Shown one piece after another: positions 11,757 to 42,627 of a DNA stretch of 64,000 bases. This stretch comes from Gemmatimonadota bacterium (lineage in GTDB: Bacteria; Gemmatimonadota; Gemmatimonadetes; Palauibacterales; Palauibacteraceae): positions 1,549-65,548 of the forward strand of contig JBDGXC010000006.1 of the NCBI GenBank assembly GCA_039584815.1, in the 5' to 3' direction. Each line of letters begins with the position of its first letter. Position 1 is the stretch's first letter. A model generated the notes under the pieces. That model did no database searches. It saw nothing but the letters and a program-made list of their open reading frames with translations, and had not been told where the DNA came from. A program made the translations under genes and the position numbers.

Positions 11757-12821
11757 TCAGGCGAGCGTGATACCGTCGTCCAGGTACACGTCCTGGATGT
11801 GGTTGAGCAGCTCCACACCTTCGGTCATGGGCCTCTGGAACGCCTTGCGGCCCGAGATCAGGCCCGTTCCACCGGCTCTCTTGTTGATCACGGCCGTGCG
11901 AACGGCGTCGGCGAAGTCGTTGTCGCCGGATGCGCCACCGCTGTTGATGAGGCCGACACGCCCCATGTAGCAATTGGCGACCTGGTAACGGCATAGATCG
12001 ATCGGGTGGTCGGTCGTCAGCTCGTCGTAGATACGCTGATCGAAGCGGCCGTACTTGACGCCGTCCGCGTTCAGGGCCACGTAGCCGCCGTTGTTCTCCG
12101 GCAGCTTCTGCTTGATGATGTCGGCCTGGATAGTGACCCCCAGATGATTGGCCTGTCCGGTCAGGTCGGCGCTCGCGTGATAGTCCTGGTCCTTCTTGAA
12201 GGCCGAATTCCGCAGGTAGCACCACAGCACGGTCGCCATGCCCAGCTCGTGCGCGTACGCGAACGCTTCGGCCACCTCGACGATCTGCCGGTTGCTCTCC
12301 TCGGATCCGAAGTAGATGGTGGCGCCCACGGCCGCGGCGCCCATGTCGTACGCCTGCTGGATCGTGCCGAAGAAGACCTGGTCGAAGGCGTTCGGATACG
12401 TCAGCAGCTGGTTGTGGTTGAACTTCACCAGGAACGGGATCTTGTGCGCATACTTGCGCGCCACGGACCCCAGGACGCCGAACGTCGAGGCCACGGCGTT
12501 GCATCCGCCCTCCATCGCGAGCTCGACGATCCTCTCCGGATCGAAGTAGTCCGGGTTCTTGGCGAAGCTGGCGCCGGCGGCGTGCTCGATCCCCTGGTCT
12601 ACGGGCAGGATCGACATGTATCCCGTGCCCGCGAGTCGACCGTGCTGGTAGATCCACGTGAGGTTGCCCAGAGCCCGGTTATTGCGGTCGGACATCGTCC
12701 ACACGCGGTCGATGAAATCAGGGCCCGGCGCGTGCAGCCGATCCCTGTCGATGCCCTTGCAGCGGTGCTCGAGGAGGAACGAAGCGTCGTCGCCCAGGAG
12801 GCTCAGTATGTGGTCGTTCAT
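11757..12821 (-). CDS. fbaB: Class I fructose-bisphosphate aldolase (DhnA/FbaB type)
   Basis: Near-collinear with E. coli FbaB: [65 protein letters not shown] and [21 protein letters not shown] are all present. Start at [10 protein letters not shown]. Confidence 0.85.
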
Positions 12822-12907
12822 CGGTCTCTGCGGGTGCGGGTGGCACGTGCGACGTGAACCGGGGCAAGATGCGGATGGCGTCGCACGAAAGCAAAGCGCG
12901 CCGGCCG

Positions 12908-13249
12908 TCAATCTGAGGGAGAAGGCATCCCGTCGGCGGGAGGACCGCCTCCGTCTCCCGTGTCCGGGCCGGACACGATCTCCCTCCGCGGATACGGGAT
13001 GGCGCTGCCTTCCCTGGCCAGCCCCAGCCGTACGATCCGCGGCAGGTCCGCCGTGAGGGCCCACCAGTCGGCGGTGTGCACCCACGGCCACAGCTTGAGC
13101 CGCACTCTTCCGACCACGCCCGCCGCTTCGACGATGTCGTCGATGCCGTACGGACGGCTCGCCAGGATGGCCATCCCGGCGAACAAGTTGGACAGGGAGT
13201 CCTGGAACGCGAATCCTACGACCAGGTCGGCGACCCCGAGTCCGGCCAA
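12908..13249 (-). pseudogene. MscS-family mechanosensitive channel remnant (beta-domain + C-terminus only)
   Basis: 113-aa ORF with a TTG start. [30 protein letters not shown] (MscS TM3/beta region) is joined directly to ...WPWVH...[14 protein letters not shown] (MscS C-terminal motif). About 90 aa are missing in between. No TM1/TM2 is present. An in-frame stop lies just upstream. Confidence 0.45.
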
Positions 13250-13811: not shown

Positions 13812-14294
13812 TCAGTACTCGACTCGATCGTCCTTCGCCGCCCACCGGAGGAACGGCTCGTCCGCGCCGTCGATCTCCAGCCGCTGCAGCTGGTAGCGGC
13901 GACGCTCGGGCGGAAGACAGAACTCCTGATACATGTCGTGATCCTGGAAACCGGCGACTCGCGCGACGTCACGGCCGTTCGCGTAGTAGACCGCGGCCGG
14001 GTGAGCCCAGTACATGGCTCCGAGGCACATCGGGCACGGCTCGCTGCTCGCGAAGATCTCGCAGCCATCGAGTCGGAACGTCGCCAGCGTCCGGCACGCT
14101 TCCCGAATCGCCACGATCTCCGCGTGCGCCGTCGGATCGTTGTCCGGCGCGACCCGATTCCCCGCCCGGGCCACGATCTCGCCGTCCTTCACGACTACCG
14201 CCCCGAACGGACCACCGCCCCGCTCGACGCTCTCGGCCGCGACGCGAACCGCCTCGCGCAGAAACCGCTCCCTGTCCTGTCGTTTCAACGCCAC
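13812..14294 (-). CDS. CDA-fold nucleoside/guanine deaminase (CMP/dCMP-deaminase zinc-binding family)
   Basis: 160 aa. HAE...PCPMC zinc-binding signature (HAEIVAIREA....SSEPCPMCLGAM). Divergently transcribed from the xdh-like operon with a 175-bp shared upstream region. Confidence 0.8.
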   Translation of the reverse strand: MALKRQDRERFLREAVRVAAESVERGGGPFGAVVVKDGEIVARAGNRVAPDNDPTAHAEIVAIREACRTLATFRLDGCEIFASSEPCPMCLGAMYWAHPAAVYYANGRDVARVAGFQDHDMYQEFCLPPERRRYQLQRLEIDGADEPFLRWAAKDDRVEY

Positions 14295-14469
14295 CTCCCT
14301 GCCGACGTCCGGAGTTCGTCGTCCGGAGGAAGCTAGGACTCGTTCCCCCGCGGAACCAGCCGTCGGCCCGGTGTGGTTCCCATGTTGCCCGGCGCCGTTG
14401 TAACGTACACACTTATGCGGTGCCCGCGCGGCCCGGCTGCGGGTCGCGACCCCAGGCAGGAGGGCGACG

Positions 14470-16682
14470 TGAAACGCGTCGAAGGTCTCTCCAAGCTCAC
14501 CGGCGGCGAGCGCTTCGTCGACGACCTCCCGGTCGACGAGGTCCTGTGGGGCGGAACGGTGCGTAGTCCGGCATCACGCGGACGCATTCGGGATGTCCGT
14601 TTCGGCTCGGAAATCGACTGGTCGGAGTTCGTGGTGGTCGACCATCGCGACGTCCCGGGGCACAACTCGGTGTTCCTGATCGAGGCGGATCAGCCGGTGC
14701 TGGCGGCCGACCGCGTCGCTCATGTCCACGAGCCGGTCCTTCTCCTGGCTCATCCGTCGCGTGACGCCGTGCGTCGGGCGGTGGCGGCGGTCGAGATCGT
14801 CGTGGATTCGGAGCCGCCCGTGCTCGACTTCCGTGCTCCTCCGCAGCCGGAGCACATCCAGTACGGGACCGACAATGTGCTGAAGAGTCTCCGGATCGAG
14901 AAAGGGGAGGCGGAGCGTGCTCTCGCGGACGCGCCGATTGTCGTGGAGGGAGTGTATGACACCGGTGCGCAGGAGCATGTGTATCTCGAGACGCAGGGCA
15001 TGCTGGCGTGGGAAGAGGGCGGGGTGATCACCGTCGCGGGCTCCATGCAGTGTCCGTACTACATCGTGGACGCGTTCCGTCACGCGCTGAACCGCCCGAA
15101 GGACGGGATCCGCATCATCCAGGCGGCCACGGGAGGCGGGTTCGGCGGCAAGGAGGAGTTCCCCTCCGGCGTCGCGCTGCATGCCGCGCTCCTGGCGCTG
15201 AAGGCCGGACGACCGGTGAAGCTCGTGTACGAGCGGGCCGAGGACATGGTCGCCACCACGAAGCGTCACCCGTCCCACGTGCGCCATCGGACGGGCGTCG
15301 ATCGGGACGGACGCCTCCTCGCGCAGGACATCGAGGTCGTTCTGGACGGAGGAGCGTACGTGACCCTGTCGCCGGTCGTCCTGAGCCGTTCGATCATCCA
15401 CGCGGCCGGTCCGTACGCGTGTGATCACGTGCGGATCCGGGGCCGGGCGATGCTCACGAACTCGCCCCCGTTCGGGGCGTTCCGTGGCTTCGGAGCCCCG
15501 CAGAGCCAGTTCGCGTGTGAGCGTCACATGGACCGCGTCGCGGCCGCGCTGAACATGGATCCGATCGAGCTGCGCCGGCGAAACGTGCTCCGGCCCGGAC
15601 AGACCACGGCCACCGGACAGACGATCGACGACGGGGCCGACCGGGAGGAAGTGATGGATCGCGCCCTCGAGCTGTCGGAATACCGGCAGCGGAGCGCGGC
15701 ACATGCCCGGTTCAACGCGTCGGACCTCACGCGGCGGCGCGGTCTCGGCCTTGCGACGTTCTTCCACGGCGCCGGGTTCACCGGAGCGGGCGAGGTGCAC
15801 CTCGACTCGGAGGTGCACGTCGCCGGGTTGCCGGACGGCCGAGTGGAGGTCCGAACGGCCAACGTGGAGATGGGCCAGGGAACGCTGACGGTGTTCACGC
15901 AGCTGGTCACCGATCGTCTCGGCCTCGACCCGGCCGACGTGACCATCGCGCCGGTCGACACGGCTCTCATCCCGGACAGTGGGCCGACCGTCGCGTCGCG
16001 CACGGTGATGGTCGTGGGAGGCCTGGTGGAGAGGGCCTGCGACGATCTCAGGCACCGGCTGGGTCTCGCGGCCGACGCCGCGGGCGGGTCCGTGACCGGT
16101 GCCATCCGATCCTGGCACGCGGCGCATCCGGCCGCGGATCTGCTGGGGAGCGCAAGGTACCGGAAGCCCGACGACATCGAGTGGGACGAGGAAACCTATC
16201 GGGGGGATGCGTACGGGGCCTACGCGTGGGGTGCGTACGTGGCCGACGTCGAGGTGGACATGAGGACGTTCGTCGTTCACGTGCGGGATTTCGTGGCGGT
16301 GCAGGAGGTCGGGCGGGTCCTGAACGACACGCTGGCGCGCGGCCAGATCCAGGGAGGCGTGGTGCAGGCCCTGGGATGGACCCTCCTCGAGGAATGCAAG
16401 TGGCGCGACGGGGCGCTGGAGAACGGGCAGCTCACCAACTATGTCATCCCGACGACGGTAGATGTCCCGTCGATACGAGTGGCCTTCCTCGAGGCCCCCT
16501 ATCCGCAGGGAGCCGGAGGCGCGAAGGGAATCGGGGAGCTGCCGTTCGACGGGGTAGCGCCGGCCGTGGCCAACGCGGTAGCCGCGGCGACGGGGGCCGA
16601 TCCGCGGTCGATCCCCCTGACGCCGGAGCGGTTGCTGGACATGCTGCTCGAACAGCCGGAGGGACAGGGGGCCGGGAGGTGA
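14470..16682 (+). CDS. Xanthine-dehydrogenase-family molybdopterin-binding large subunit (XdhA/CoxL-like)
   Basis: GTG 14470 with GGAGGG 5 nt upstream. Motifs AQEHVYLETQ, ATGGGFGGKEEF, FRGFGAPQSQFA and the C-terminal GAKGIGELP (catalytic Glu) match the XOR family. Confidence 0.85.
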
Positions 16683-17191
16683 GCGGCGCGAGCGAAGTCC
16701 GGAACGGCGGGGCTGCCGACTGTGGTGAGGTCGAGCTCACCCTGGCGCTCAACGGCGAGTCGGTGACGGTTCGAACGTCGCCGTCGGCCCGCCTGCTTGA
16801 CGTGCTGCGCTACGACCTCGGTCTCACCGGAACCAAGGAAGGGTGCGGCGAGGGCGAGTGCGGCGCCTGCACGGTCCTGATGGACGGTCTGCCCGTCAAC
16901 TCCTGCCTCGTGCCCGGCTGGCAAGCCCGCGGTCGGGCCATCGAAACGGTGGAATCCGTTCCCGCGGCCGAGCTCACGGCCCTGCACGAGAGCGGAGCCA
17001 CCCAATGCGGCGCCTGCACGCCCGGCGTCGTGATGACGGCCTGGTGGGTACGGCGGAATCCCGACCTGGTCGATGAGCACACTCTGCGGGACATCATGGC
17101 GGGCAATCTGTGCCGGTGCACCGGCTACGACGGGATCATCGACGGCCTGGAGGTCTGGCTCGCCGCCGCGGGCCGGGAGCGCGCCCGGTGA
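16679..17191 (+). CDS. [2Fe-2S]-binding small subunit of xanthine dehydrogenase family
   Basis: GTG overlaps the upstream stop (GTGA). GCGEGECGACTV and CG.CTPG...LCRCTGY are the two 2Fe-2S cluster motifs. Confidence 0.85.
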   Translation: MSGASEVRNGGAADCGEVELTLALNGESVTVRTSPSARLLDVLRYDLGLTGTKEGCGEGECGACTVLMDGLPVNSCLVPGWQARGRAIETVESVPAAELTALHESGATQCGACTPGVVMTAWWVRRNPDLVDEHTLRDIMAGNLCRCTGYDGIIDGLEVWLAAAGRERAR

Positions 17192-18018
17192 AGGTCCTGT
17201 TCCCGGAGGGCCTGGACGAGGCCCTGGATCTGCTGGCCGCTCACCCGGAGGCGACGCCCATCGCCGGCGGAACGGACCTGTGCGTTCACTGGCCCGCGCA
17301 GCTGGATGCCGTGCGGCGCACATGGCTCGACCTGTCCGGAGTGCAAGAGCTGCAGGGCCACCACTGGACCGACCGGGAGCTCGTCCTCGGCGGTCGCTGC
17401 ACGTACTGGGACATCATCGGTGACGGACGTGCCGACTCCGAGCTGCCGCTGCTCGCGGAAGCGGCTCGCCGGGTGGGGGCCTTACAGATCCAGACCCGCG
17501 GGACCTGGGCCGGTAACATAGTCAACGCCTCCCCCGCAGCGGACGGCGTGCCGGTCCTGATGGCGTACGACGCCGTCGTCGTGCTCCGAGCCCGGGATGA
17601 ATCCGAAGAGGTTCCGCTGGCGGAGTTCTATCTTGGATACAAGGAGATGCGCCGACGACCGGATCAACTCGTCACGGCGATTCGGATTCCCAGACGGAGA
17701 TACGACTTCCAGTGGTTCGAGAAGGTCGGGACGCGAGCCGCGCAGGCGATCGCGAAGGTCGGCGTGGCCGTGACACGGCGCGGAGACGAGTGGCGGGTAG
17801 TGGCCAACAGCGTGGCCCCCACCGTGTGCCGGTGTCCCGCGCTCGAGACATTTCTGGGCTCCCGAAGAGCCGCGACCGGGCCGGAGGATCTACTCCCGGC
17901 GCTGCGCCGGGACGTTTCCCCGATCGACGACATCCGATCCACCGCTCGCTACCGGGAGCAGGTGCTGGCCCGTCTCCTGTACTTCGGCTTGCGGGACGAA
18001 TGTCCCTCGTTCACCTGA
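17188..18018 (+). CDS. FAD-binding medium subunit of xanthine dehydrogenase family (CoxM/XdhB-like)
   Basis: GTGA overlap with the FeS gene. Has ...TPIAGGTDL..., TWAGNIVNASPAADG and a C-terminal ..IRSTARYREQV, as in the FAD_binding_5/CO_deh_flav_C family. Confidence 0.8.
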   Translation: MKVLFPEGLDEALDLLAAHPEATPIAGGTDLCVHWPAQLDAVRRTWLDLSGVQELQGHHWTDRELVLGGRCTYWDIIGDGRADSELPLLAEAARRVGALQIQTRGTWAGNIVNASPAADGVPVLMAYDAVVVLRARDESEEVPLAEFYLGYKEMRRRPDQLVTAIRIPRRRYDFQWFEKVGTRAAQAIAKVGVAVTRRGDEWRVVANSVAPTVCRCPALETFLGSRRAATGPEDLLPALRRDVSPIDDIRSTARYREQVLARLLYFGLRDECPSFT

Positions 18019-18031
18019 CCCGGCGGTCGCG

Positions 18032-20740
<2,709 letters not shown>

Positions 20741-20754
20741 GGCGGGCGGCACCG

Positions 20755-22881
20755 ATGGCCCACCTGGTCCCGATTCCGTTCGGCGAGCTGGCGCTCCGCA
20801 TGTGTCACGAAGCCGAGGCGGCCGACGCCGTGTTCGATCTCCCGGAACGCAAATGGTGGGTGCCGGACCCGGCGTTCGACCTCTCGGCCCCGCACTTCGG
20901 CCGGCGCGCTTCCACGCCGGTCGGTCCGGCTGCCGGCCCCCACACGCAGCTCGCCCAGAACATCGTGCTGGCCTGGCTGGCGGGGGGCCGGATCATCGAG
21001 CTCAAGACGGTGCAGGTGAACGACCGGCTGGCCATTCCCCGACCGTGCATCCACGTGCCGAACGTGGGGTTCAACGTCGAATGGTCGCAGGAGCTGCGGG
21101 TCGAGGAGTCGCTGCGCGAGTACGCGAAGGCGGCGTACCTGATCGAGATCCTCAAGGCGACGCGGGCGTTCGGACGCTTCCCGTCGGACCACGGCATGAA
21201 GACGGTGTTCGATATCAGCGTCGGATACGATCTGGAGGGCATTCGAAGCGACAAGGTCACGCGGTTCCTCCGCGCGCTGCGGGACCCCGCGGTCCTGTTC
21301 GATGATCTGCGGAGCGAGCTGGGGGGTGAGCTGGCCCTGTACCGGGATCTGGACTTGCCGGTCCCGATCTCGGACTGCGTGACGCTGTCCACGTTCCACG
21401 GCTGTCCGGCGGACCAGATCGAGTCGATCGCACGGTACCTCCTCGAGGAGCTGGGCCTGCACGTGATCATCAAGCTGAACCCGACGCTGCTCGGATTCGA
21501 GACTGTGCGGGAGCTCCTGCACGGTCGCCTCGGATACTCGCATCTCGATCTGCGCCGCGAGGCGTTCGACGTCGACCTCCAGTACGAGGATGGACTGCAG
21601 ATGCTGCACCGGCTGCGGCCTCTGGCGGAGGCTCGCGGCACGGCCATAGGAGCGAAGTTCACGAACACCCTGGTGGTCCGGAACGACGCGACCGTGTTTC
21701 CGACGCAGACGGACCCGTGGATGTACGTCTCGGGCCCGCCGCTGCACGTGATCGCGATGAACCTCATGCAGCGCTTCCGGAGCGACCTCGGCTTCGAGTT
21801 TCCGGTCTCCTTCTCGGCGGGGATCGATGTGAAGAACTTTCCGGCGGCCGTGACCTGCGGGATGGTCCCCGTCACCACCTGCACCGACCTTCTCAGGCAG
21901 GGCGGCTTCGGTAGACTTCCCGGGTATCTGAAGGCCCTGAGCCGCGAGATGGAGAAAGCGGGCACGCGGTCGCGAGAGGCGTTCGTGCTGGCCGCGCACG
22001 GTCACGGCGCGGCCGCCATCGGGGAGACGTTCGGCGGCGGGGCGAGCGCCCTCCGCCTTCCGGAACAGGAAGTCGAGCGTCTGTCCCGACTGGCCGGAAC
22101 CGCGCCCGACGAGCTGCCGGAGGCGATCCGGGTGACGGCGCGCAGCGCCGGCCTCGACCCGGAAGCGGCCGTGCAGAGCGCGACCCGGACCGCGGGACGG
22201 CTGAACGGAAACGACATCGTGCCCACGCTGGCGGACGATCGCCGATATCACGCCGCGACGAACGCGAAGCCGCCCCGCCGCATCGACAGCACCCTGGAGC
22301 TGTATGATTGCATCAACTGTGACCTGTGCATCACGGCGTGCCCGAACGATGCCATCTTCGGCTACGCCGTCGAGCCGCGGAGTGTGGAAACCGACCGGAT
22401 CGTTGTCACCGACGACGGGATCGTCCGCGAAGCGGGAGCCGGGTACTCCGTGCGAGAGGGCCACCAGCTGGCGGTGTACGCGGGCGCCTGCAACGAGTGC
22501 TCCAACTGCGAGGTATACTGCCCGGAACGGGGAGCGCCCTTCCGTGTGAAGGAGCGCCTGTTCCCGTCGGCCGAGGCCTTCCGCGAGTCGCCGGATGACG
22601 GCTTCTGGCGGGCGGACCACCAGCTCCTGGCACGCCTCGGTGGATGCGAGCTGCGGCTCGAGGTGGACGAATCCGCGAACGAGGCTGTGGTGACGACGGG
22701 TGGACTGCGACTCGACCTTCGGTGGGATCCCCTCGAAGTGGTGGGCGGCACCGCGGGAGAGGGTGGAGCCGAGCCGCTGGACACGGCGCACCTGTGGCGG
22801 ATGCACACGGCGTGGGAGTCCATCTACCGATCCGCGCGACCCAATCCGGTGAGCCCGGGCGGGCGGCCCGCGCGAGCCTGA
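20755..22881 (+). CDS. YgfK-like oxidoreductase: large N-terminal domain of unknown function + 4Fe-4S dicluster ferredoxin domain
   Basis: 708 aa. Two CxxCxxCxxxCP motifs (CINCDLCITACP and CNECSNCEVYCP) lie near the C-terminus. The N-terminal 560 aa resembles the uncharacterised N-terminal half of YgfK-type proteins. No GltD-like NAD(P)/FAD domain is detected. Confidence 0.55.
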   Translation: MAHLVPIPFGELALRMCHEAEAADAVFDLPERKWWVPDPAFDLSAPHFGRRASTPVGPAAGPHTQLAQNIVLAWLAGGRIIELKTVQVNDRLAIPRPCIHVPNVGFNVEWSQELRVEESLREYAKAAYLIEILKATRAFGRFPSDHGMKTVFDISVGYDLEGIRSDKVTRFLRALRDPAVLFDDLRSELGGELALYRDLDLPVPISDCVTLSTFHGCPADQIESIARYLLEELGLHVIIKLNPTLLGFETVRELLHGRLGYSHLDLRREAFDVDLQYEDGLQMLHRLRPLAEARGTAIGAKFTNTLVVRNDATVFPTQTDPWMYVSGPPLHVIAMNLMQRFRSDLGFEFPVSFSAGIDVKNFPAAVTCGMVPVTTCTDLLRQGGFGRLPGYLKALSREMEKAGTRSREAFVLAAHGHGAAAIGETFGGGASALRLPEQEVERLSRLAGTAPDELPEAIRVTARSAGLDPEAAVQSATRTAGRLNGNDIVPTLADDRRYHAATNAKPPRRIDSTLELYDCINCDLCITACPNDAIFGYAVEPRSVETDRIVVTDDGIVREAGAGYSVREGHQLAVYAGACNECSNCEVYCPERGAPFRVKERLFPSAEAFRESPDDGFWRADHQLLARLGGCELRLEVDESANEAVVTTGGLRLDLRWDPLEVVGGTAGEGGAEPLDTAHLWRMHTAWESIYRSARPNPVSPGGRPARA

Positions 22882-22900
22882 CGGCGCCGGGGAAGAGCGT

Positions 22901-24319
22901 ATGCGGAAGCGACTCATCAATCTACGGATTCCGGCCGACGGCCCGGTGACGTCCGGAGCCGACACGGTCGAGCGGGACCTGTTGATCCGCGACGGTCGCA
23001 TCGCGGAGATCGTCCCGCCCGCCGGGCGTCCGGCCGAGGCGGACGAGGAACGCGTCGATCTGGAGAACGCCCTCGTCCTGCCGGGAGCGATCGACGGACA
23101 CGTCCACTTCGACGACCCCGGGTTCACGCACCGGGAGAACTTCGAGACGGGAACCCGCGCGGCTGCTGCCGGAGGCGTAACGTGCATCGTCGACATGCCG
23201 TGCACGTCGCTTCCGCCCGTCACGACCCGCGCCAACCTCGAGGCGAAGCTGTCCGTCATCGCACCCAGGGCGCACGTCGACTTCATGCTGTGGGGCGGCG
23301 CCTCGGCCAACTCGCTCGCCGACCCGGATTGGGCGCGCCACCTGGAGGAGCTCGTCGAGGACGGCGTGGCCGCGATCAAGGTGTACATGTTGTCCGGCAT
23401 GGACACGTTTCGTGACCTGACCGTGTCCCAGATCGAATCCGTGCTCCGTGAGACCCACCGTCTGGGGATCCCGGCGGGCGTGCACGCCGAGGACCGGGCA
23501 CAGGTGATCGAGTTGACCGAGCGACTGCGGGCCGAGGGAGCGAACGGGCCGCTGGACTACGCCGCGTCCAGACCGGCGGCTGCAGAGGTGTGCGCCGTCA
23601 CGGCGCTCCGCGACCTGTGCCGGCGCACGGGCGCGAGGGTGCACGTCGTGCACCTCGCTTCCGGCGAGGCTCTCGACGTGGTCACCGCGGCACGCGCCGA
23701 GGGACTGCTCCTGTCGGCCGAGACCTGCCCCCACTTCCTGGCGTTCACCGAGGCCGACCTCGAAGCGCAGGGTGCGCTGCTCAAAACCGCTCCGGTCGTG
23801 AAATCGGAGGCCGACAGGGCGCGGCTGTGGGAGGGAGTGGCCGGGGGCCAGCTCCAGTACGTGGCCACCGACCACGCGGCCGGGCAATGGCCGGAAGAGA
23901 AGCACACCGGCTCGATCTGGACGGACTACGGGGGCGTTCCCGGCGTGGAGATCCTGCTCCCGTACATGTACTCGGACGGATATCGCGCGGGGCGCCTGTC
24001 GCTCGCCCGGCTCGTCGAGGTCACGGCGTCCGAGCCGGCGCGGTTCTTCGGCATCGAGTCCCGCAAGGGACGCATGGCGGAAGGCCTGGACGCGGATCTG
24101 GCCGTGATCGACGAGGAGGACGACTGGACGGTCCGGGCATCGGACCTGCACAGCCTGAACCGGTACACGCCTCATGAAGGACAGCGACTGGCCGGACGAG
24201 TCCGGGCCACGCTCGTGCGGGGCGAAGAGGTGTTCCGGCGTCATCCGGGCGGTGCGGAGACCTTCGGTTCTCCCGGCCACGGGCACCGGGTGCGGCGTGA
24301 AACGCGGGTGGAGACATGA
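22901..24319 (+). CDS. Cyclic amidohydrolase (hydantoinase/allantoinase/dihydropyrimidinase family; HyuA-like)
   Basis: Has LPGAIDGHVHF, a carbamylated-Lys region AIKVYM, ...VHAED..., a VHVVHLAS-type motif and ATDHA. This is the amidohydrolase superfamily metal-ligand pattern of DHOase-like enzymes. Confidence 0.8.
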   Translation: MRKRLINLRIPADGPVTSGADTVERDLLIRDGRIAEIVPPAGRPAEADEERVDLENALVLPGAIDGHVHFDDPGFTHRENFETGTRAAAAGGVTCIVDMPCTSLPPVTTRANLEAKLSVIAPRAHVDFMLWGGASANSLADPDWARHLEELVEDGVAAIKVYMLSGMDTFRDLTVSQIESVLRETHRLGIPAGVHAEDRAQVIELTERLRAEGANGPLDYAASRPAAAEVCAVTALRDLCRRTGARVHVVHLASGEALDVVTAARAEGLLLSAETCPHFLAFTEADLEAQGALLKTAPVVKSEADRARLWEGVAGGQLQYVATDHAAGQWPEEKHTGSIWTDYGGVPGVEILLPYMYSDGYRAGRLSLARLVEVTASEPARFFGIESRKGRMAEGLDADLAVIDEEDDWTVRASDLHSLNRYTPHEGQRLAGRVRATLVRGEEVFRRHPGGAETFGSPGHGHRVRRETRVET

Positions 24320-25704
24320 GTGACGTCACGGTCCTCGGGCACGGAGACGTGATCACCGGCTGGGACGCCGCCGCCGTGATCCCGGATGGAGCCGTCGCGT
24401 GGAGCGGCGACCGGATCGTCGCCGTCGGGCCCGTCGAGGAGGTTCGAGCCGCGCATCCGGGGGCCGCGACGCTCGACGCCGGCGGTGGCCTCGTTCTGCC
24501 GGGTCTGGTGAACCTTCACCATCACTTCTATTCCGCACTGGCTCGCGGGCTCGACCCGGGCGTGCCGATGCGCGACTTCCCCGCGATCCTGGACCGTTTG
24601 TGGTGGCGCCTGGATCGCGCGCTGGATCCGGAGACCGTGCGACTGTCTGCTCTGCTCTCGGCCGCCGAGTGCGTGCGCTGGGGCTGCACGACCGTGTTCG
24701 ATCACCACGCCTCTCCCTCCTGCATCGAGGGAAGCCTCGACCTCATCGCGGGAGCGGTCGAAGCCGCGGGAATCTCGGCGGTCCTGTGCTACGAGGTGAG
24801 CGATCGCAACGGGGCGTCAGGTGCGCGTGCCGGGCTCGAGGAAAACTGGCGTTTCCTGGAGGAAAGGCAGACCGACCGGCGCGTGCGAGGCATGCTCGGC
24901 CTGCACGCCAGCTTCACGGTTCGCGATGTGACGCTGGCGGAAGCCGCGGGGCGGCGCCCACCCGGGACCGGCGTTCATGTGCACGTCGCCGAGCACCCGG
25001 TGGATGTGGAAGCGTCGATCCGCGCTTTCGGCGCCGGGCCGCTGGAGCGGCTCGCGGCCACGGAGCTGCTCGACGATCGCTCCCTGCTGGCGCACGCGAT
25101 CCATCTGGACGAGCGGGAGTACGAGCGAGCCGCGGCGGCGGGTGCGACGCTGATCCACAACCCGGAGTCCAACGCCAACAACGGCGTGGGACGGCTGGAC
25201 GTTCCGAGGGCCGCGGACCTCGGGTGCGCGATCGGCCTGGGCACGGACGGGATGTCGTCCGCCGTCCTGCGGGCACTGCGGGCCGCGTTCCTGGGATTGC
25301 GAGGCGGCGCGGAAGATCCCTCGCGGGGCTTCGACCACGTACCACGACTGCTCGCGACGAACGCCAGGGTCGCCGCCCGTCTGCTGGACGAACCGTTACT
25401 CGGCCAGCTTGCGCCCGGCGCTCCGGCCGACGTGGTCGTGGTCGATGCGCCCGCCCCCACGCCGTTCGGGCCGGAGAACCGGTTCGCTCACCTGGTGTAC
25501 GGGGTCGCCGAAGCGCCCGTGCGGCACACGGTGGCCCGCGGTAGAGTGCTTCTCGAGGACTACCTTCTCCGGACGCTGAACCTCGAGGCCATCGCGCTCG
25601 ACGCGCGGCGGGCGACACCCGGGCTGTGGGAGCGCTATCACGCCCTCGAGTGGAACACCCCGTACCTGGGCCCGGATGGCCCGTCCGTCAGGGAGGCGCA
25701 ATGA
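24316..25704 (+). CDS. SsnA-like amidohydrolase (chlorohydrolase/aminohydrolase family)
   Basis: ATGA overlap with the upstream gene. Has LPGLVNLHHHFYSAL, GCTTVFDHH, VHVHVAEH and GLGTDG, typical of the SsnA/guanine-deaminase-like branch. Confidence 0.75.
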   Translation: MSDVTVLGHGDVITGWDAAAVIPDGAVAWSGDRIVAVGPVEEVRAAHPGAATLDAGGGLVLPGLVNLHHHFYSALARGLDPGVPMRDFPAILDRLWWRLDRALDPETVRLSALLSAAECVRWGCTTVFDHHASPSCIEGSLDLIAGAVEAAGISAVLCYEVSDRNGASGARAGLEENWRFLEERQTDRRVRGMLGLHASFTVRDVTLAEAAGRRPPGTGVHVHVAEHPVDVEASIRAFGAGPLERLAATELLDDRSLLAHAIHLDEREYERAAAAGATLIHNPESNANNGVGRLDVPRAADLGCAIGLGTDGMSSAVLRALRAAFLGLRGGAEDPSRGFDHVPRLLATNARVAARLLDEPLLGQLAPGAPADVVVVDAPAPTPFGPENRFAHLVYGVAEAPVRHTVARGRVLLEDYLLRTLNLEAIALDARRATPGLWERYHALEWNTPYLGPDGPSVREAQ

Positions 25705-27164
25705 CTCACGTCGTGGACGCGGCCGCGCGGGAAAGGGCCGTCGAGCGGTGTCGCGAGCGCGGCGTCCTCATTCCCACGTTCGCCGAACAGCGCGATCCCT
25801 CGCTGGTCGATCCGGCCGTCAACCGGGCCCTGGCCGGCGTGGACGTTCAGGCGCTGGATCCACTCAACCTGTTCCGCATCACGTGGCACAACGATCCCGA
25901 CTCCGGAGGCTTCGGCGCGGTGGCCGCGATCGAGCTTCCATCCGAGCTCACGGGAGTGTCCGCCCGCGTGGTCGGGCTGGTGGGAGAGCTCTTCCCGACG
26001 GGCGCACACAAGGTCGGCGCCGCATTCGGGTGTCTCGTGCCCCGGCTTGTCACCGGTGCGTTCGACCCGACCATTCACAAGGCCGTGTGGCCCTCGACAG
26101 GCAATTACTGCCGGGGCGGGGCGTTCGACAGCCTTCTACTCGGGTGCGAGGCCGTGGCGATCCTGCCGGAAGAGATGAGCCGCGAGCGCTTCGAGTGGCT
26201 GGAGCGGGTGGGGGCGGAGATCATCGCGACGCCGGGCTGTGAGAGCAACGTCAAGGAAATCTTCGACATGTGCTGGGAGATCCGCCGCACACGGCCCGAG
26301 GCCGTGATCTTCAACCAGTTCGACGAGTTCGGCAACTACCTGTGGCACTATGGCTTGACCGGTCCTGCCGCGCACTCGGTGTTCGAGCGCCTCGCCGGTC
26401 CTGAGGACCGTTTCGCGGCCTGGGTAAGCGCCACGGGCTCGGGTGGAACGCTGGGGGCCGGGGACTATCTGAAACAGCGGTTCCCCGGTTGCCGGGTCAC
26501 AGCGGCGGAGGCGTTGCAGTGCCCCACCTTGCTGAACACCGGTTTCGGGGGGCACCGGATCGAGGGTATCGGGGACAAGCACGTCCCGTGGATCCACAAC
26601 GTCCGGAACACGGACTTCGTAGCGGCGATCGACGACGAGGCCACCATGCGGATCGCCCGTCTGTTCAACGAGCCGGCCGGTCACGAGCTGCTCGTCGGAC
26701 GCGGAGTTCCCGCGCCGGCGGTCGGTCGGCTCCCGTCACTCGGTCTCTCGTCTATCTGCAACCTGCTGGCCGCGATCAAGACGGCACGTTGGTTCGAGCT
26801 CGACGAGCACGACGTCCTCCTCACCCCGTTCACTGACGCCATGTGGCTGTATCAGACCCGGCTCGACGAGCTCTCGGCGGAGCGCGGCGCGTATCGAGAG
26901 CCGGACGCCGCGATCGACTTCGAGCGGCGACTGCTGGGCGCGACGACCGACCACGTGCGCGAGCTCACGCACCCGGACCGCAAGTCGATCCATAACCTGA
27001 AGTACTTCACGTGGGTTGAGCAGCAGGGCCGCACGGCGGAGGAGCTGGACGCGCTGTGGAGCCCCGCGTTCTGGACCGATCAGCAGGATCGCATTCCGGA
27101 GTGGGACGAGGCCATCGACGAGTTCAACGGCGACACGGGAGTCCTGGAGGGGTTGCGTGAGTAG
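25701..27164 (+). CDS. PLP-dependent fold-type II enzyme (TrpB-like lyase/thiolase family), 487 aa
   Basis: ATGA overlap with ssnA-like. PTGAHKVG resembles the TrpB HTGSHKIN PLP-lysine motif. A Gly-rich loop SATGSGGTLGAG is present. It is longer than TrpB, with an N-terminal extension. Confidence 0.65.
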   Translation: MTHVVDAAARERAVERCRERGVLIPTFAEQRDPSLVDPAVNRALAGVDVQALDPLNLFRITWHNDPDSGGFGAVAAIELPSELTGVSARVVGLVGELFPTGAHKVGAAFGCLVPRLVTGAFDPTIHKAVWPSTGNYCRGGAFDSLLLGCEAVAILPEEMSRERFEWLERVGAEIIATPGCESNVKEIFDMCWEIRRTRPEAVIFNQFDEFGNYLWHYGLTGPAAHSVFERLAGPEDRFAAWVSATGSGGTLGAGDYLKQRFPGCRVTAAEALQCPTLLNTGFGGHRIEGIGDKHVPWIHNVRNTDFVAAIDDEATMRIARLFNEPAGHELLVGRGVPAPAVGRLPSLGLSSICNLLAAIKTARWFELDEHDVLLTPFTDAMWLYQTRLDELSAERGAYREPDAAIDFERRLLGATTDHVRELTHPDRKSIHNLKYFTWVEQQGRTAEELDALWSPAFWTDQQDRIPEWDEAIDEFNGDTGVLEGLRE

Positions 27165-28401
27165 GCTGAGCGGATGGCTGGCCGATGCGGCTCGCGAGGC
27201 CGCCGTCGCGCACGAGGCGGAGATCGTGCGCTTCCTGCGTGAGATGATCGCGATACCGGCGGAGAGCGGAAACGAGGGCGAGCGGTGCCGACGGGTGCTG
27301 GAGGAGTACGAACGGCTGGGTTTCGATGAGGCGCGCTTCGATCGCCTGGGCAACGTCGTCGCCCGCTTGGGCGACGGTCCGCTGACGATCCTGCTGGATG
27401 GACACATCGACTGTGTCGGGATCGGCGATGCGTCGGCGTGGGCGCACGACCCGTTCATCGGAAAGCTCGAGGACGGCAAGGTGTGGGGCCGCGGAGCGGT
27501 GGACGAGCTTCCCGCTATCGCGTGCATGGCCTACGGCCTGAGCATGGCGCGCGAACGGGGCCTGCCGCCCGACGTCACCGTGTACCTGACGGCCTCCGTT
27601 ATGGAGGAGGATTGCGACGGGTACTGCCTGCGACACCTCATCGAGCAGGAGGGGATCCGGCCGGACGCCGTCGTGATCGGAGAGCCTACCGACCTCGGTG
27701 TGTATCGCGGGCAGCGAGGACGCGTGGAGGCTCTCATCACGGCCCGCGGGGTGTCGTCGCACGCCGCCCACCCGGAGGAAGGGGTGAACGCCCTGTATAA
27801 GCTGGCTCCGGTCCTGCTCGAGATCGAGGCGCTCAACGAGCGTCTTCCGCACGACGAGTTCCTCGGGAAGGGGACGGTGGTCGCCTCGTTCCTGGAGTGC
27901 GACTCGGCGTCCCTCAACGCCGTGCCGGCGGCGGCCCGTCTGTACGTGGATCGGCGATTGACGGCGGGCGAGACGGCGGAGGCGGCGGTCGAACAGATCC
28001 GCGCCCTGCCCGGGCTCGGCGACTCGGAAGTGGAGCTCCTGCGGTACGAGCGGAAGAGCTGGACGGGAGAGCGAGCCGCGCAGGACAAGGTGTTCCCGGC
28101 CTGGGTGCTTCCCGAGGAGCACGCTCTGGTGGGGGCTGTAGCCGAGGCCGTCGCGGCGGTGACGGGATCGCCTCCCGGCATTTCGCGCTGGGGATTCTCC
28201 ACCAACGGCGTCGCGACCATGGGACGGCACGGCATCCCCACGGTCGGCTTCGCCCCCGGGCTGGAGGAGCTGGCGCATACGACCGGGGAGTGGGTGGCGG
28301 TGGACGATCTGGTGACGGCCACCGCTGCGTACAGTCTGATCCCGGAGGCCGTGGCCGCACGCGTCGAGGATCTGCGGACCGATGGGGAGAAGTCCCGGTG
28401 A
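27156..28401 (+). CDS. M20-family peptidase/amidohydrolase (YgeY-like)
   Basis: The GTG start overlaps the upstream stop by 8 nt. Has LDGHIDCVG, WGRGAVDE, GEPTD and HAAHPEEGVNAL (M20 metal ligands and dimerisation domain). Confidence 0.8.
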
Positions 28402-29393
28402 ACGACTACGACATCATCGAAACGGCGAATCTCGGGGGGCGCGACTTCCTCTCCACGGAAGACTGGACCGTGGCAGAGCTGGAGACCCTGTTCTCGCTGG
28501 CGGCGAAGTTGAAGGCGGATCGCGCGGCCGGAGGTCGCACGCCGCTGCTCGTCGACAAGACGCTGTACATGATCTTCTTCGACTCGTCCACGCGGACCCG
28601 GAATTCGTTCGAGACCGGGATCACGCAACTCGGGGGACACGGGATCTACCTGTCGCCCGATCGCATGCAGATCAGCCACGGCGAGAACGCCCGAGACACG
28701 GCCAGCGTCCTGTCCCGGTACGGCGAGGCGATCGGGATCCGCCATTGCGCGTTCGGAGAGGGGAACGCGTACACGACCGAAGTGGCCGAGCACGCCTCGG
28801 TCCCCGTCCTCAACATGCAGTGCGACGTCTACCATCCCTGTCAGATCCTCGCCGACTACCTGACGATCCGGGAGCGCTTCGGAGACACCCGGGGACTGAA
28901 GCTGGGCGTGGCGTGGACGAGTGCGCCCAACTACGTGCGCCCGATCTCGGTCCCCCAGAGCCTGATTCTCATGATGCCTCGATTCGGGATCGACGTGACC
29001 CTCGCGTATCCGCCGGAGTTCCGCCTCATGCCGGAGATCGAAGAGCGAGCCAGCTGCAATGCGCGGGCCGCGGAATCCGGGTTCGAGATCTCGCATCGCT
29101 TCGAAGATGCGTTCGAGGACGCAGACGTCGTGATACCGAAGTCGTGGGGCCCCCTCGTGCACACGCGGGACACCGATGAGGGCCTGCGCCTCATCGAGGC
29201 CTATCCGGACTGGAGGTGCGACGCGAACCGGATGGCGCTGGGGAAGGAGCGCCTGATCTACATGCACCCTCTGCCCGCCGACCGCGGTCGAGAGGTAACC
29301 GACGAGGTAATCGACGGCCCGCACTCGGTGGTGTACGACGAGGCCGAGAATCGCCTGCACGTGCAGAAGGCGCTGATGGCGCTCACGATGTGA
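28396..29393 (+). CDS. YgeW-like carbamoyltransferase (ATCase/OTCase superfamily)
   Basis: GTGA overlap with the M20 gene. Has the carbamoyl-phosphate motif SSTRTRNSFE and HPLP (YMHPLPADRG). It is distinct from the OTC at 8984-9985. An in-frame upstream extension was rejected. Confidence 0.75.
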
Positions 29394-29397
29394 CGCG

Positions 29398-30639
29398 ATG
29401 AAGGCAGACTTCGTCCTCCGGTGCTCCGAGTGCGCACGCGAGCACGCCGAAGACCCGCGGCGTCTCGTGTGCGATCTGTGCGGCGAGCTCCAGGTGCCGG
29501 GAGGATCCACTCGGGGTGTGCTCGAAGTGGAGCTGGCTTCCCTGCCCGACCGATGGCCGGTCGAGCCGCCGGACGACCCGGGTTTTCTCACCTCCTTCCT
29601 GCCTGTCGCGACGTCGGACGCCTTCCCCGCGTTTCCGGCCGGCAACACCCCTCTCGTGTCCGCCCCCGCCCTGCGGCGCGAGCTCGGCATGCCCCGGCTG
29701 TGGATCAAGGACGACACGCGCAACCCGAGCGGCTCCACCAAGGATCGGGCTTCGCTGCTCGTGGCGGCCAAGGCTCGCGAATACGGTCTCGGGACGATCG
29801 CGACCGCCTCGACGGGAAACGCGGGGACAGCTCTGGCGGCCGTGTGCGCGGCGGCCGACCTGCGGGCCGTGGTGTTCGTCCCCGCGACCGCGCCCGAGGG
29901 AAAGCTGATCCAGATGCTGGCGTACGGCGCGGAGGTCCTGCCGGTGGACGGAACCTACGATCAGGCATTCGAGCTGTGCCTCGCGGCGTGTCGGGAATTC
30001 GCCTGGTACAACCGCAACACGGCTCTCAACCCGTTCACCGTCGAAGGCAAGAAGACGGTGGGGCTCGAGATCGCCCGGGGACTGGCTCCCGAGACTCCCG
30101 ATGTCGTCGTCGTTCCGGTGGGGGACGGGGTGATCCTGTCGGGCGTGGCGAAGGGGTTCGCCGACCTGGGTCGCGCCGGCCTGATCGACCGGCTGCCGCG
30201 CCTGCTCGCCGTTCAGCCGGTAGGCGCGGCGGCGATAGCTCGCGCGTGGCGCGCCGGATCGGAGGACGTGGAGCCGATCCCGGGAGCCCACAGCGTGGCC
30301 GACAGCCTGACGGTGGAGGCGCCGCGCGCCGCGCGCTTGTGCCTGCGTCGCCTGCGCGAAACGGGGGGCGGGGCCGTGACCGTCCCCGACGAGGCGATTC
30401 TGAGGGCGATACCGAGACTCGCCGCCCGGTCGGGAGTGTTCGCCGAACCCGCCGCGGCGGCGGGCCTCGCGGGGCTCGAACAAGCGGCCTCAGAAGGACT
30501 GGTGGACCGCGACGAGCGAATCGTCCTCGTGGTCACGGGCGCCGGTCTCAAGGACGTAGCCGCCGCCCGACGCTCGGTCCGGCGTCCCGATCCCGTCGCT
30601 CCGTCGCTGGAGGCCGTGGCCGGGCGGGTGCGCCCGTAG
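29398..30639 (+). CDS. Threonine-synthase-like PLP enzyme with N-terminal Cys4 zinc ribbon
   Basis: Collinear with short-form ThrC: NPSGSTKDRAS (versus NPTGSFKDRG), TASTGNAG, VFVP, GAEV..VDG.YD, NP...EGKKT and LTGAGLKD. The N-terminus has CSEC...CDLCG. Confidence 0.75.
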   Translation: MKADFVLRCSECAREHAEDPRRLVCDLCGELQVPGGSTRGVLEVELASLPDRWPVEPPDDPGFLTSFLPVATSDAFPAFPAGNTPLVSAPALRRELGMPRLWIKDDTRNPSGSTKDRASLLVAAKAREYGLGTIATASTGNAGTALAAVCAAADLRAVVFVPATAPEGKLIQMLAYGAEVLPVDGTYDQAFELCLAACREFAWYNRNTALNPFTVEGKKTVGLEIARGLAPETPDVVVVPVGDGVILSGVAKGFADLGRAGLIDRLPRLLAVQPVGAAAIARAWRAGSEDVEPIPGAHSVADSLTVEAPRAARLCLRRLRETGGGAVTVPDEAILRAIPRLAARSGVFAEPAAAAGLAGLEQAASEGLVDRDERIVLVVTGAGLKDVAAARRSVRRPDPVAPSLEAVAGRVRP

Positions 30640-42590: not shown

Positions 42591-42627
42591 TCCAGCGCCT
42601 TTCGATGCGCTCGGCAGACGCGTCCGT

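Follow-up and report, generated by a model that had tools for sequence, protein, structure and literature searches.

Introduction

The ygeW-xdhD region of Escherichia coli encodes the reductive 2,8-dioxopurine pathway of urate breakdown, which was reconstituted in 2025 (Li et al., bioRxiv 10.1101/2025.05.19.654654, also PMC12507026; Liu et al., bioRxiv 10.1101/2025.04.24.650524). In this study we analysed a related gene cluster in a stretch of 64,000 nucleotides from a Gemmatimonadota bacterium (GenBank assembly GCA_039584815.1, contig JBDGXC010000006.1, positions 1,549 to 65,548 of the forward strand). This whole stretch is called the window below, and all coordinates are those of the window. 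The cluster is an operon of eleven + strand genes, g1 to g11, preceded by one divergent gene, g0.

According to the 2025 studies, the enzyme that converts urate to 2,8-dioxopurine is XdhD-YgfM in E. coli and XdhAC/DOPDH, which depends on selenium, in Clostridium sporogenes. The next reduction, that of 2,8-dioxopurine, falls to YgfK; in C. difficile UacX has this function. SsnA, which serves as the marker of the pathway in Li et al. (PMC12507026), opens the ring to give ureidomethylhydantoin, and HyuA converts this compound to 2,3-diureidopropionate. One ureido group is phosphorolysed by YgeW to carbamoyl phosphate, from which YqeA makes ATP. The other ureido group is hydrolysed by YgeY, and YgeX finally converts 2,3-diaminopropionate to pyruvate and ammonia. 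The same studies report that the Clostridium molybdenum enzyme has no FAD subunit and leave its physiological electron donor open, that the C. difficile protein called XdhD is 25.6% identical to E. coli XdhD, and that UacX has no FAD domain.

The reductive pathway has thus been known since 2025 from gut bacteria, with gout therapy in view. A gene neighbourhood of the kind studied here had been seen across genomes by Barba et al. 2013 (PMC4016543), who listed it as 'dehydrogenase X1 + hyuA + ygeW + ygeY + ssnA + xdhABC + yqeA'. They assigned no pathway to it, and two features that we describe below, the g8/g11 pair and a truncated YgfK, are not described there. With the operon of the window, the pathway, closely packed with the reactions that supply it from purines, extends to phyla of soil and sediment not mentioned in the 2025 papers, among them Gemmatimonadota and Acidobacteriota. 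The pathway itself is known already; new here are the g8/g11 pair and the question of the electron donor.

Organization and conservation of the operon

Genes were called from the listing of open reading frames (ORFs), third-position GC periodicity and inspection of start codons. In the window, whose G+C content is 60-71%, eleven co-directional genes occupy 14469-30639 on the + strand and form an operon of about 16 kb, in which every joint is an overlap or a gap of 19 bp or less (from g1 to g11: -4, -4, +13, +14, +19, -4, -4, -8, -4 and +4 nt). The first-pass annotation, made from the sequence alone, had described these eleven tightly spaced genes correctly, apart from placing the start of g1 at 14470, one base off the GTG at 14469 that we prefer and that has AGGAGG upstream. 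ATGA/GTGA-type overlaps are found at six of the ten joints; as sequence features they are compatible with translational coupling. The divergent gene g0 (13812-14294, - strand) starts 174 bp from g1, and the region between the two starts (14295-14468) is presumed to carry the promoter or other regulatory elements.

Taking gene content and order together, we consider it likely that the operon and the divergent deaminase gene encode a complete purine-to-pyruvate route, a lineage-specific version of the reductive 2,8-dioxopurine pathway. In the proposed route, guanine would be converted to xanthine by g0, and hypoxanthine and xanthine would be oxidised to urate by g1-g3. The conversion of urate to 2,8-dioxopurine would be catalysed by g4, which has no FAD subunit of its own, and the reduction of 2,8-dioxopurine by g5. 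Hydrolysis of the pyrimidine ring by g7 would then give ureidomethylhydantoin, and g6, an allantoinase-like protein in the place of HyuA, would open the hydantoin ring to yield 2,3-diureidopropionate. Phosphorolysis of one ureido group by g10 would release carbamoyl phosphate, and hydrolysis of the other by g9 would leave 2,3-diaminopropionate, which g8 and g11 together, in the place of the absent YgeX, would convert to pyruvate and ammonia. All substrates and electron donors in this scheme, and the way in which g8 and g11 would share the last step, we infer.

The domain inventory given in the first-pass annotation (a molybdenum hydroxylase trio, an Fe-S and molybdopterin fusion, a YgfK-related protein, a cyclic amidohydrolase, SsnA, YgeY, a carbamoyltransferase and two fold-type-II enzymes dependent on pyridoxal phosphate) was borne out by Pfam and NCBIfam. 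BLASTP against the E. coli K-12 locus gave identities of 45% to YgeY, 37.5% to part of YgfK, 36% to YgeW, 35% to SsnA and 30% to HyuA. Of the steps of the E. coli pathway, only that of YgeX is without a recognisable counterpart in the window. The two clusters have in common the families for ring reduction, for two ring openings and for two ureido cleavages, and in both an Fe-S and molybdopterin fusion stands at the entry. They differ in that the window has a single operon with another gene order, to which a conventional xanthine dehydrogenase (XDH), a guanine deaminase and two other pyridoxal phosphate (PLP)-dependent enzymes are added.

To compare loci, homologues of g8 were searched for with one genome per species; 80 loci were fetched of at least 597 matches, and two came from exact-protein look-ups. 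Proteins of the window and of E. coli served as tblastn queries for mapping the loci; the number L001 denotes the E. coli K-12 ygeW-xdhD region. The genes g4-g11 are colinear in seven loci (L002, L004, L006, L007, L009, L011 and L027), and L005 and L012 have the same order up to their contig ends; the order is kept in metagenome-assembled genomes (MAGs) of Gemmatimonadota, Acidobacteriota and Rhodothermales. A molybdenum enzyme, a reductase, SsnA, an M20 hydrolase, a carbamoyltransferase and a ThrC-like protein are all present in 13 loci found through g8. In relatives, carbamate kinase may be adjacent (L013, L022 and L024), and YqeB-like genes occur in L024, L026, L030 and L033. The BLASTP matches, the 13 loci with the full set and the colinearity of g4-g11 support the proposal, already made in the first-pass annotation, of a single conserved module homologous to E. 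coli ygeW-xdhD. Closer homologues in unrelated pathways did not emerge, and the co-localisation proved to be conserved. The annotation had also called the E. coli pathway poorly resolved, a description that the 2025 reconstitution has made outdated.

Two PLP-dependent enzymes proposed to replace YgeX

In the window, g8 (25701-27164, + strand) encodes a CysK/CBS-like protein of 487 aa, and g11 (29398-30639, + strand) encodes a ThrC-like protein with an N-terminal zinc ribbon of four cysteines. We propose that the two act as partners and jointly replace YgeX. The first-pass annotation had assigned the position of the diaminopropionate ammonia-lyase to the ThrC-like enzyme; g11 is indeed ThrC-like, but the slot is taken by the conserved pair of g8 and g11, not by g11 alone. 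YgeX, g8 and g11 are all fold-type II PLP enzymes, and g8/g11 hold the place of YgeX in the cluster. Sequence similarity is marginal: when the 64-kb window was searched by tblastn with YgeX, no orthologue was found and the one match was weak, partial and inside g11. The alignment of g11 with YgeX has 23% identity over 134 aa, and that of g8 has an E-value of 4e-4 over 46 aa, with a local G-N-x-x-R-G substrate-loop motif shared by g8 and YgeX. The position of YgeX Asp120 is Thr in both g8 and g11; in YgeX, Lys77 and Asp120 presumably handle D- and L-diaminopropionate, Asp120 deprotonating the D-isomer.

The g8 protein has PALP as its only Pfam domain and scores 87.8 bits against the CysK model TIGR01139, whose cut-off is 350.95; by this score and by its length and architecture it fails as a cysteine synthase. 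In the AlphaFold2 model (pLDDT 81, pTM 0.86), the core superposes on CysK, cystathionine beta-synthase (CBS) and beta-cyanoalanine synthase with TM-scores of 0.75-0.8 and 21-26% identity (Foldseek), the alignments spanning about 310-370 of the 487 residues. The rest is attributed, from the secondary-structure map of the model, to extra helical segments of about 75 residues at the N-terminus and about 110 at the C-terminus. These termini distinguish g8 from YgeX, and also from CysK and CBS, with which it shares a similar core fold. Homologues of g8 number more than 8000 and are named only 'cysteine synthase' or 'PLP-dependent enzyme' in the source databases. They are 72-80% identical across Gemmatimonadota and Acidobacteriota, members from Chloroflexota are about 60% identical to g8, and in species-representative genomes no fewer than 597 matches to g8 could be confirmed.

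The g11 protein scores 262 bits for Pfam PALP, passes the broad thrC model TIGR00260 (183 bits against a cut-off of 167) and stays below PRK08197 (271 against 303). Its whole length can be aligned with four ThrC structures (2zsj, 6cgq, 2d1f and 1uim), but it has Thr where all four solved enzymes have Arg in the motif NP-x-R-[LI]-EG, and Ala at the equivalents of T88 and S155. We take this Arg (R160 in Thermus thermophilus) to bind the phosphate of O-phosphohomoserine. Among the 55 g11-like genes in the fetched loci, STGN-A is present in all, and the Arg is found in none of the 52 in which the motif is visible. Because the Arg is replaced in g11 and its relatives, g11 is unlikely to be a threonine synthase in spite of its passing the broad thrC model.

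Neighbours within 10 kb of g8 were counted in 50 genome loci of at least 15 kb. A g11-like gene is the most frequent companion (38 of 50), followed by a carbamoyltransferase (31), a YgeY/M20 hydrolase (23), a YgfK- or dihydropyrimidine dehydrogenase (DPD)-type reductase (22), SsnA (21), a molybdenum enzyme (20), and carbamate kinase and a hydantoinase (18 each). In the reciprocal search, an alignment of diverse g11-like sequences was used against metagenome contigs; of the 22 g11-centred loci that were 15 kb or longer, 14 contained g8, and the accompanying genes were again the same. The two genes are neighbours in at least ten phyla, with changing gene order. A YgeX-type gene was found in none of 162 related loci, in which YgeX gave only partial matches of 54-63 bits, all on g11-like genes. 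YgeX is also missing where YgeY is 70-76% identical to that of E. coli (L075, L142, L143 and L163) or YgeW is 66-69% identical (L075 and L148). Clostridia, in contrast to the window, retain YgeX.

These data lead us to lean, if only slightly, towards the view that g8, g11 or both replace YgeX. The strongest alternative is that a single PLP enzyme acts in the pathway, being isofunctional with diaminopropionate ammonia-lyase, and that the other is a housekeeping or unrelated passenger such as a threonine or cysteine synthase. One PLP enzyme would be chemically sufficient, g11 passes TIGR00260, and the databases label g8 as a cysteine synthase. We nevertheless regard this explanation as unlikely: the g11 family has lost the ThrC Arg, g8 reaches 88 of the 351 bits required of CysK, and proximity of the two genes in at least ten phyla with shifting order is hard to explain as hitch-hiking.

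A wider proposal, to which we give somewhat less than an even chance, is that g8 and g11 are a pair of enzymes, not described before, with which the 2,8-dioxopurine pathway ends instead of with diaminopropionate ammonia-lyase in hundreds of species, most of them uncultured, from at least ten phyla, that at least one of them catalyses a reaction not assigned to any family, and that the electrons for g4 and g5 may come from XDH or ferredoxin. As to the chemistry, only speculative suggestions can be offered. With Thr in both proteins at the Asp120 position, each might handle one enantiomer of diaminopropionate, or one of them might act on a mono-ureido intermediate; the reaction not assigned to any family would be that of an enantiomer-specific diaminopropionate lyase, or a beta-elimination or replacement on ureido-alanine. 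We found neither a description of the g8/g11 pair nor a link of these families to the pathway in the literature searched. Since a published neighbourhood analysis of urate clusters scored YgeX as Pfam PF00291, genes of the g8 and g11 type would have been counted there as YgeX. Assignment of a function to g8 would correct many misleading 'cysteine synthase' annotations.

Some variant arrangements were seen around the pair. In the Chloroflexia locus L053, a gene for a family-2 glycosyltransferase (9030-9971 of that locus) lies between the g11-like gene and g8, and about 11 further loci show the same 1.1-kb spacing. The operon of L053 comprises a Bmp/PnrA-type ABC transporter, two carbamoyltransferases and carbamate kinase, and has no ring-cleaving enzymes. 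On the metagenome contigs L085 and L093, g11-like genes (63-65% identity) adjoin a YgeV-like sigma-54 regulator and no other pathway gene is within reach, which suggests paralogous use of the ThrC-like enzyme.

Predicted ring-opening and ureido-cleaving enzymes

The protein of g7 (24316-25704, + strand), proposed to open the reduced pyrimidine ring, shares 35% identity with E. coli SsnA in an alignment of 434 aa. Its best families are the SsnA models NF005540 (406.7 bits, cut-off 444) and TIGR03314 (388 bits, cut-off 455.5), and the next family reaches 160 bits. By sequence, therefore, g7 is assigned to the marker family of the pathway, SsnA being by far the top family with scores slightly under the cut-offs. 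The g9 protein is a YgeY-family M20 hydrolase by both the YgeY models and BLASTP, passing NF009555 (445.5 against 321) and TIGR03526 (427.5 against 321.5) at 45% identity to E. coli YgeY. We place g9 at 27157-28401 (+ strand); its start is slightly uncertain, the alternative being 27226, and 27157 is favoured because the family models align from residue 13.

The gene in the position of hyuA is g6 (22901-24319, + strand), a cyclic amidohydrolase proposed to open the ring of ureidomethylhydantoin. It aligns with HyuA from end to end at 30% identity, scores best as an allantoinase and passes TIGR03178 (372.2 against 357.85). This could be read as a sign of an oxidative, allantoin-type route, with urate supplied by XDH, a genuine allantoinase in g6 and a carbamoyltransferase acting on a ureido compound derived from allantoin; this could be ureidoglycine or oxalurate, as with the Rubrobacter UGTCase or the oxamate transcarbamylase of E. 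coli. In favour of it, the operon has both a true XDH and a carbamoyltransferase of catabolic type, and such a route has been proposed for another high-GC bacterium (PMC4016543). However, among the ORFs scanned in and around the operon there was no uricase, HIU hydrolase, OHCU decarboxylase, allantoicase or ureidoglycolate enzyme, and SsnA, YgeY, the YgfK half and the TIGR03311 molybdenum enzyme are markers of the reductive route. Moreover, of all the genes only g6 can be missing from relatives in which the others remain colinear. A single CH2 separates ureidomethylhydantoin from allantoin, so that an allantoinase-like fold would suit the reductive route as well. We therefore judge the allantoin route to be improbable and retain the reductive pathway as the preferred reading of g6.

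The carbamoyltransferase g10 (28398-29393, + strand) is considered catabolic and would have the role of YgeW, in which a ureido group and phosphate give an amine and carbamoyl phosphate. It contains the Pfam domains OTCace_N and OTCace and matches YgeW over the full length with 36% identity (205 bits), compared with 31% (136 bits) to a second carbamoyltransferase of the window at 8984-9985. Every NCBIfam cut-off is missed by g10, both that for ornithine carbamoyltransferase (272 of 306) and those for YgeW (208 of 453 and 196 of 500); it is 65 residues shorter than YgeW and does not qualify as a knotted carbamoyltransferase of the YgeW kind. In other clusters that contain g8 (L023, L033, L046, L064 and L075), a true YgeW with 59-66% identity to that of E. 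coli stands in its place, and because of this replacement g10 is likely to be a functional analogue of YgeW. C. difficile has, instead of a carbamoyltransferase, the hydrolase UacY.

The gene at 8984-9985 (- strand), 4 kb upstream of the operon, encodes a canonical ornithine carbamoyltransferase (TIGR00658, 415 bits against 281). Its product could use carbamoyl phosphate from g10, the window having no carbamate kinase. Another variation is seen in L003, L036, L061 and L077, which have two carbamoyltransferases and a carbamate kinase and lack a YgeY-type or M20 hydrolase. In such loci both ureido groups might end up as carbamoyl phosphate and yield ATP, with more ATP conserved as a result.

Molybdenum enzymes, predicted reductase and guanine deaminase

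The Fe-S and molybdopterin fusion protein encoded by g4 (18032-20740, + strand) has 902 aa and is proposed to convert urate to 2,8-dioxopurine. It had been called XdhD-like in the first-pass annotation, which is right for the domain architecture and wrong for the family. Its identity to E. coli XdhD is 25% (BLASTP), and it scores 190 bits against the XdhD model TIGR03313, whose cut-off is 1102, whereas it passes the equivalog cut-off of TIGR03311, 'selenium-dependent XDH' (889.9 against 830.45). In the alignment, XdhD has an insertion of 11 residues, E606 among them, for which g4, g1 and XdhA have no equivalent; together with the low score for the XdhD model, this absence indicates that g4 is not of the XdhD type. 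Unlike XdhD, g4 retains the Cys motifs of the 2Fe-2S domains, and it differs from the E. coli enzyme further in having no YgfM-type partner of its own.

Five g4-like genes of 851-873 aa, from Clostridia, Desulfobacteraceae and unassigned metagenome contigs, all pass TIGR03311; four of them are close to ssnA, and the fifth (L109) is at a contig end. In C. sporogenes DOPDH (EDU35963.1) the molybdenum domains span aa 307-839, which fits the 848-position TIGR03311 model and the same size class as the g4-like proteins. The entry enzymes of the clusters of C. sporogenes (Liu et al.) and C. difficile (Li et al.) resemble g4 also in being Fe-S/Mo proteins of about 850-900 aa without FAD subunit and with about 25% identity to E. 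coli XdhD. Judged by size, TIGR03311 membership and context, g4 is probably an enzyme of the Clostridium DOPDH type. Diagnosis by the published differences F1009V and A1078T/S was tried and set aside, as the region aligns ambiguously; HMMER places Asn at F1009 and Ala/Ser at 1078/1079 of rat XDH, a weak hint, in this ambiguous region, of a lost aromatic residue.

The protein of g5 (20755-22881, + strand), the proposed 2,8-dioxopurine reductase, has 708 aa. It is homologous to YgfK, as stated in the first-pass annotation, but not over its whole extent: BLASTP aligned it only to YgfK 7-428 (37.5% identity) and 905-997. The YgfK model TIGR03315 matches residues 4-401 at model positions 4-398 with 395 bits (cut-off 835), and Pfam finds a 4Fe-4S dicluster domain at 515-591. 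Thus g5 consists of the substrate-reducing half of YgfK and two [4Fe-4S] clusters, and the NAD(P)H/FAD module of the E. coli enzyme (YgfK about 429-904) is lost. The short form also occurs in L026, L028, L030, L031, L033, L096 and L127, sometimes beside a separate GltD/YgfT-like gene. The reductase slot in other loci is filled by short YgfK alone, short YgfK with the GltD/YgfT-like protein, a DPD-like fusion (Fer4_20, Pyr_redox_2 and DHO_dh in L003) or full-length YgfK (L077 and L078). The reductase of C. difficile is likewise without FAD domain, implying a ferredoxin-type donor, but UacX is a homologue of PydA and g5 is a truncated YgfK.

Upstream of g4, the genes g1 (14469-16682), g2 (16679-17191) and g3 (17188-18018), all on the + strand, would encode the molybdopterin-binding large subunit, the small subunit with two [2Fe-2S] clusters and the FAD-binding subunit of a conventional XDH. 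Pfam domains are Ald_Xan_dh_C, MoCoBD_1 and MoCoBD_2 in g1, Fer2 and Fer2_2 in g2, and FAD_binding_5 and CO_deh_flav_C in g3. The top NCBIfam family of g1 is pucD/XdhA, under the cut-offs, with 29% identity to E. coli XdhA, and the best families of g2 are pucE/XdhC, with 39% identity to E. coli XdhC. The top PDB match of g1 is chain B of Rhodobacter capsulatus XDH (252 bits), with the same residues at GGKE, KRH, FRGFG, F-T and GE(P/L)P. We take these motifs to be the purine-binding and catalytic residues of XDH (R. capsulatus E232, R310, F344, F459/T460 and E730). By its domains and the motifs of g1, the trio fits the three-subunit XdhABC/PucCDE type, and we classify it, on sequence, as a divergent member of xanthine dehydrogenase. 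Among relatives g1-g3 are gained or lost as a unit, and they lie upstream of g4 only in the closest ones.

A pairing of g3 with g4 in the style of YgfM-XdhD was suggested by an ORF of 1184 aa with FAD, Fe-S and molybdenum domains in L002. In this apparent g3-g4 fusion (1056-4610 of L002), the g3 homologue has its final 35 residues in a different reading frame, which makes a frameshift artefact, most likely of assembly, the probable cause. Since the fusion is artefactual, and since g1-g3 move as a unit while g4 is alone in most relatives, the pairing was rejected.

The divergent gene g0 had been annotated as a deaminase of the cytidine deaminase fold. We confirm its presence and refine it to a predicted guanine deaminase converting guanine to xanthine: besides the Pfam domain dCMP_cyt_deam_1, the protein has a full-length match to guanine deaminase of Bacillus subtilis (1wkq/1tiy; 152 bits, E 1e-43, residues 7-159 against 10-163). 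In some relatives the gene is inside the operon, its homologue immediately preceding g4, with the same orientation, in L010 and L020, and adjoining YgfK in L148.

The substrate might also be another N-heterocycle, such as a pyrimidine degraded in a Pyd-like way, nicotinate or a modified purine, in which case the likeness to the urate cluster would reflect shared superfamilies only. In line with this, the nearest PDB entry to g4 after Desulfovibrio gigas aldehyde oxidoreductase is the large subunit of nicotinate dehydrogenase, g5 belongs with reductases of the DPD and dihydroorotate dehydrogenase kind, g6 is in the dihydropyrimidinase/hydantoinase superfamily, and several parts are below equivalog cut-offs. 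We think it very improbable, because g4 aligned to rat XDH keeps the equivalents of the purine-type residues Glu802, Arg880 and Phe914 (and, in the MAFFT alignment, the Glu of the Glu1261 motif), g1 has the XDH motifs, a guanine deaminase is attached, and the set of SsnA, YgeY, YgfK half, TIGR03311 enzyme and carbamoyltransferase recurs.

Evaluation of the proposed pathway and electron flow

Several observations weigh against the proposed pathway or against parts of it. Cultured Gemmatimonadota are mostly aerobes, whereas DOPDH has been reported to be active only anaerobically. By tblastn and by Pfam and NCBIfam scans, the window is without a carbamate kinase, a gene for maturation of molybdenum cofactor or selenium, a purine transporter and a regulator. 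Enzymes of TIGR03311 are expected to depend on selenium. The first-pass annotation had already stated that carbamate kinase, maturation or selenium genes and a sigma-54 regulator are missing, and this holds for the tblastn searches and the scans of the larger ORFs. Specifically, tblastn with the E. coli proteins found no YqeA, YqeB, YqeC, MocA, YgeV or purine permease in the 64 kb, in which the window differs from the E. coli cluster. Between g5 and g7, g6 is absent from six loci that are otherwise colinear (L010, L013, L015, L020, L022 and L024). In NCBIfam, g5, g6, g7 and g10 do not reach the equivalog cut-offs of the corresponding E. coli-type enzymes, and neither do g1-g3 those of their families, so that the orthology of all of these is judged by best match and context only.

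With regard to the last step, the structure of g8 groups with beta-replacement enzymes (CysK/CBS) and not with ammonia-lyases. The role of g8 and g11 rests on genomic association, and seven of the 50 long g8 loci have no pathway gene within 10 kb, while 13 hold genes of the lower pathway only; some g11-like genes stand alone. An example of the lower-pathway type, from Chloroflexia, has the order carbamoyltransferase, carbamate kinase, Bmp/PnrA-type ABC transporter, g11 and g8. Such loci mean that the pair may serve a broader, ATP-yielding module for ureido amino acids. By contrast, that g8, g10 and g11 are a biosynthetic module which forms diaminopropionate or ureidoalanine (an SbnA-like enzyme with a diaminopropionate transcarbamylase, as for viomycin or zwittermicin) and happens to sit on a purine cluster is scarcely credible, since the existence of diaminopropionate transcarbamylases (PMC4581275) and a weak likeness of g8 to SbnA (35 bits, where the cut-off is 350) are set against the regular company of carbamate kinase, YgeY, SsnA and hydantoinase, a combination that points to catabolism, and against the finding of no nonribosomal peptide synthetase or other biosynthetic genes in the loci surveyed for pathway genes, the ORFs there being only partly annotated.

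In the reductive pathway as we propose it, the supply of electrons is of particular interest, since reductase and molybdenum enzyme are both without a pyridine-nucleotide module, which bears on the physiological electron donor of DOPDH. As g4 and g5 have neither a flavin nor a pyridine-nucleotide module, their electrons probably come from ferredoxin or from another Fe-S protein, for example the co-expressed XDH. Oxidation of hypoxanthine to urate frees four electrons and the two reductive steps use four, which makes coupling inside the operon an attractive possibility. If g4 and g5 are in fact fed by XDH or ferredoxin, hypoxanthine breakdown would be internally redox-balanced. About 9 kb downstream of the operon, at 39661-42674 on the - strand, a two-subunit 2-oxoacid:ferredoxin oxidoreductase is encoded (POR, POR_N, PFOR_II and TPP_enzyme_C). 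Reduced ferredoxin for g4 and g5, which lack flavin, could come from this enzyme, pyruvate being the end product of the pathway.

Regulatory sequences and flanking genes

An Rfam scan of the whole window found no purine, xanthine or other riboswitch at the gathering threshold. In the operon and the 174-bp divergent region, no promoter site of the sigma-70 consensus was detected, a consensus that may not apply to this phylum. The sole terminator-like site across the operon is a - strand hairpin inside g4, which, coming from a consensus scan, is weak evidence and uninformative for the phylum.

The larger flanking ORFs are unrelated to purine breakdown by Pfam and NCBIfam, with small ORFs only partly covered; they encode Mla transport, DAHP synthase, outer-membrane proteins, the 2-oxoacid:ferredoxin oxidoreductase and glutaminyl-tRNA synthetase. 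Also unrelated to the operon are an ORF for a class I fructose-bisphosphate aldolase (11757-13091, - strand), in which about 90 residues precede the family match at residue 92, possibly reflecting the choice of start, and a Ser/Thr kinase (4928-6595, + strand) whose kinase domain begins only at about residue 250.

The flanks (outer-membrane protein, Big_1, DAHP synthase, MlaD and MlaF) are colinear with several related contigs, and the DAHP synthase is 81-83% identical to those of MAGs labelled Gemmatimonadota, which places the window in that phylum or in one closely related to it. One of the colinear loci, L004 (CAXMRU010000295.1), carries the label of an Akkermansiaceae MAG. With a G+C content of 67%, and with the gene order of the window kept as far as the housekeeping flanks at 58-84% amino acid identity, it is probably a mis-binned contig of Gemmatimonadota.

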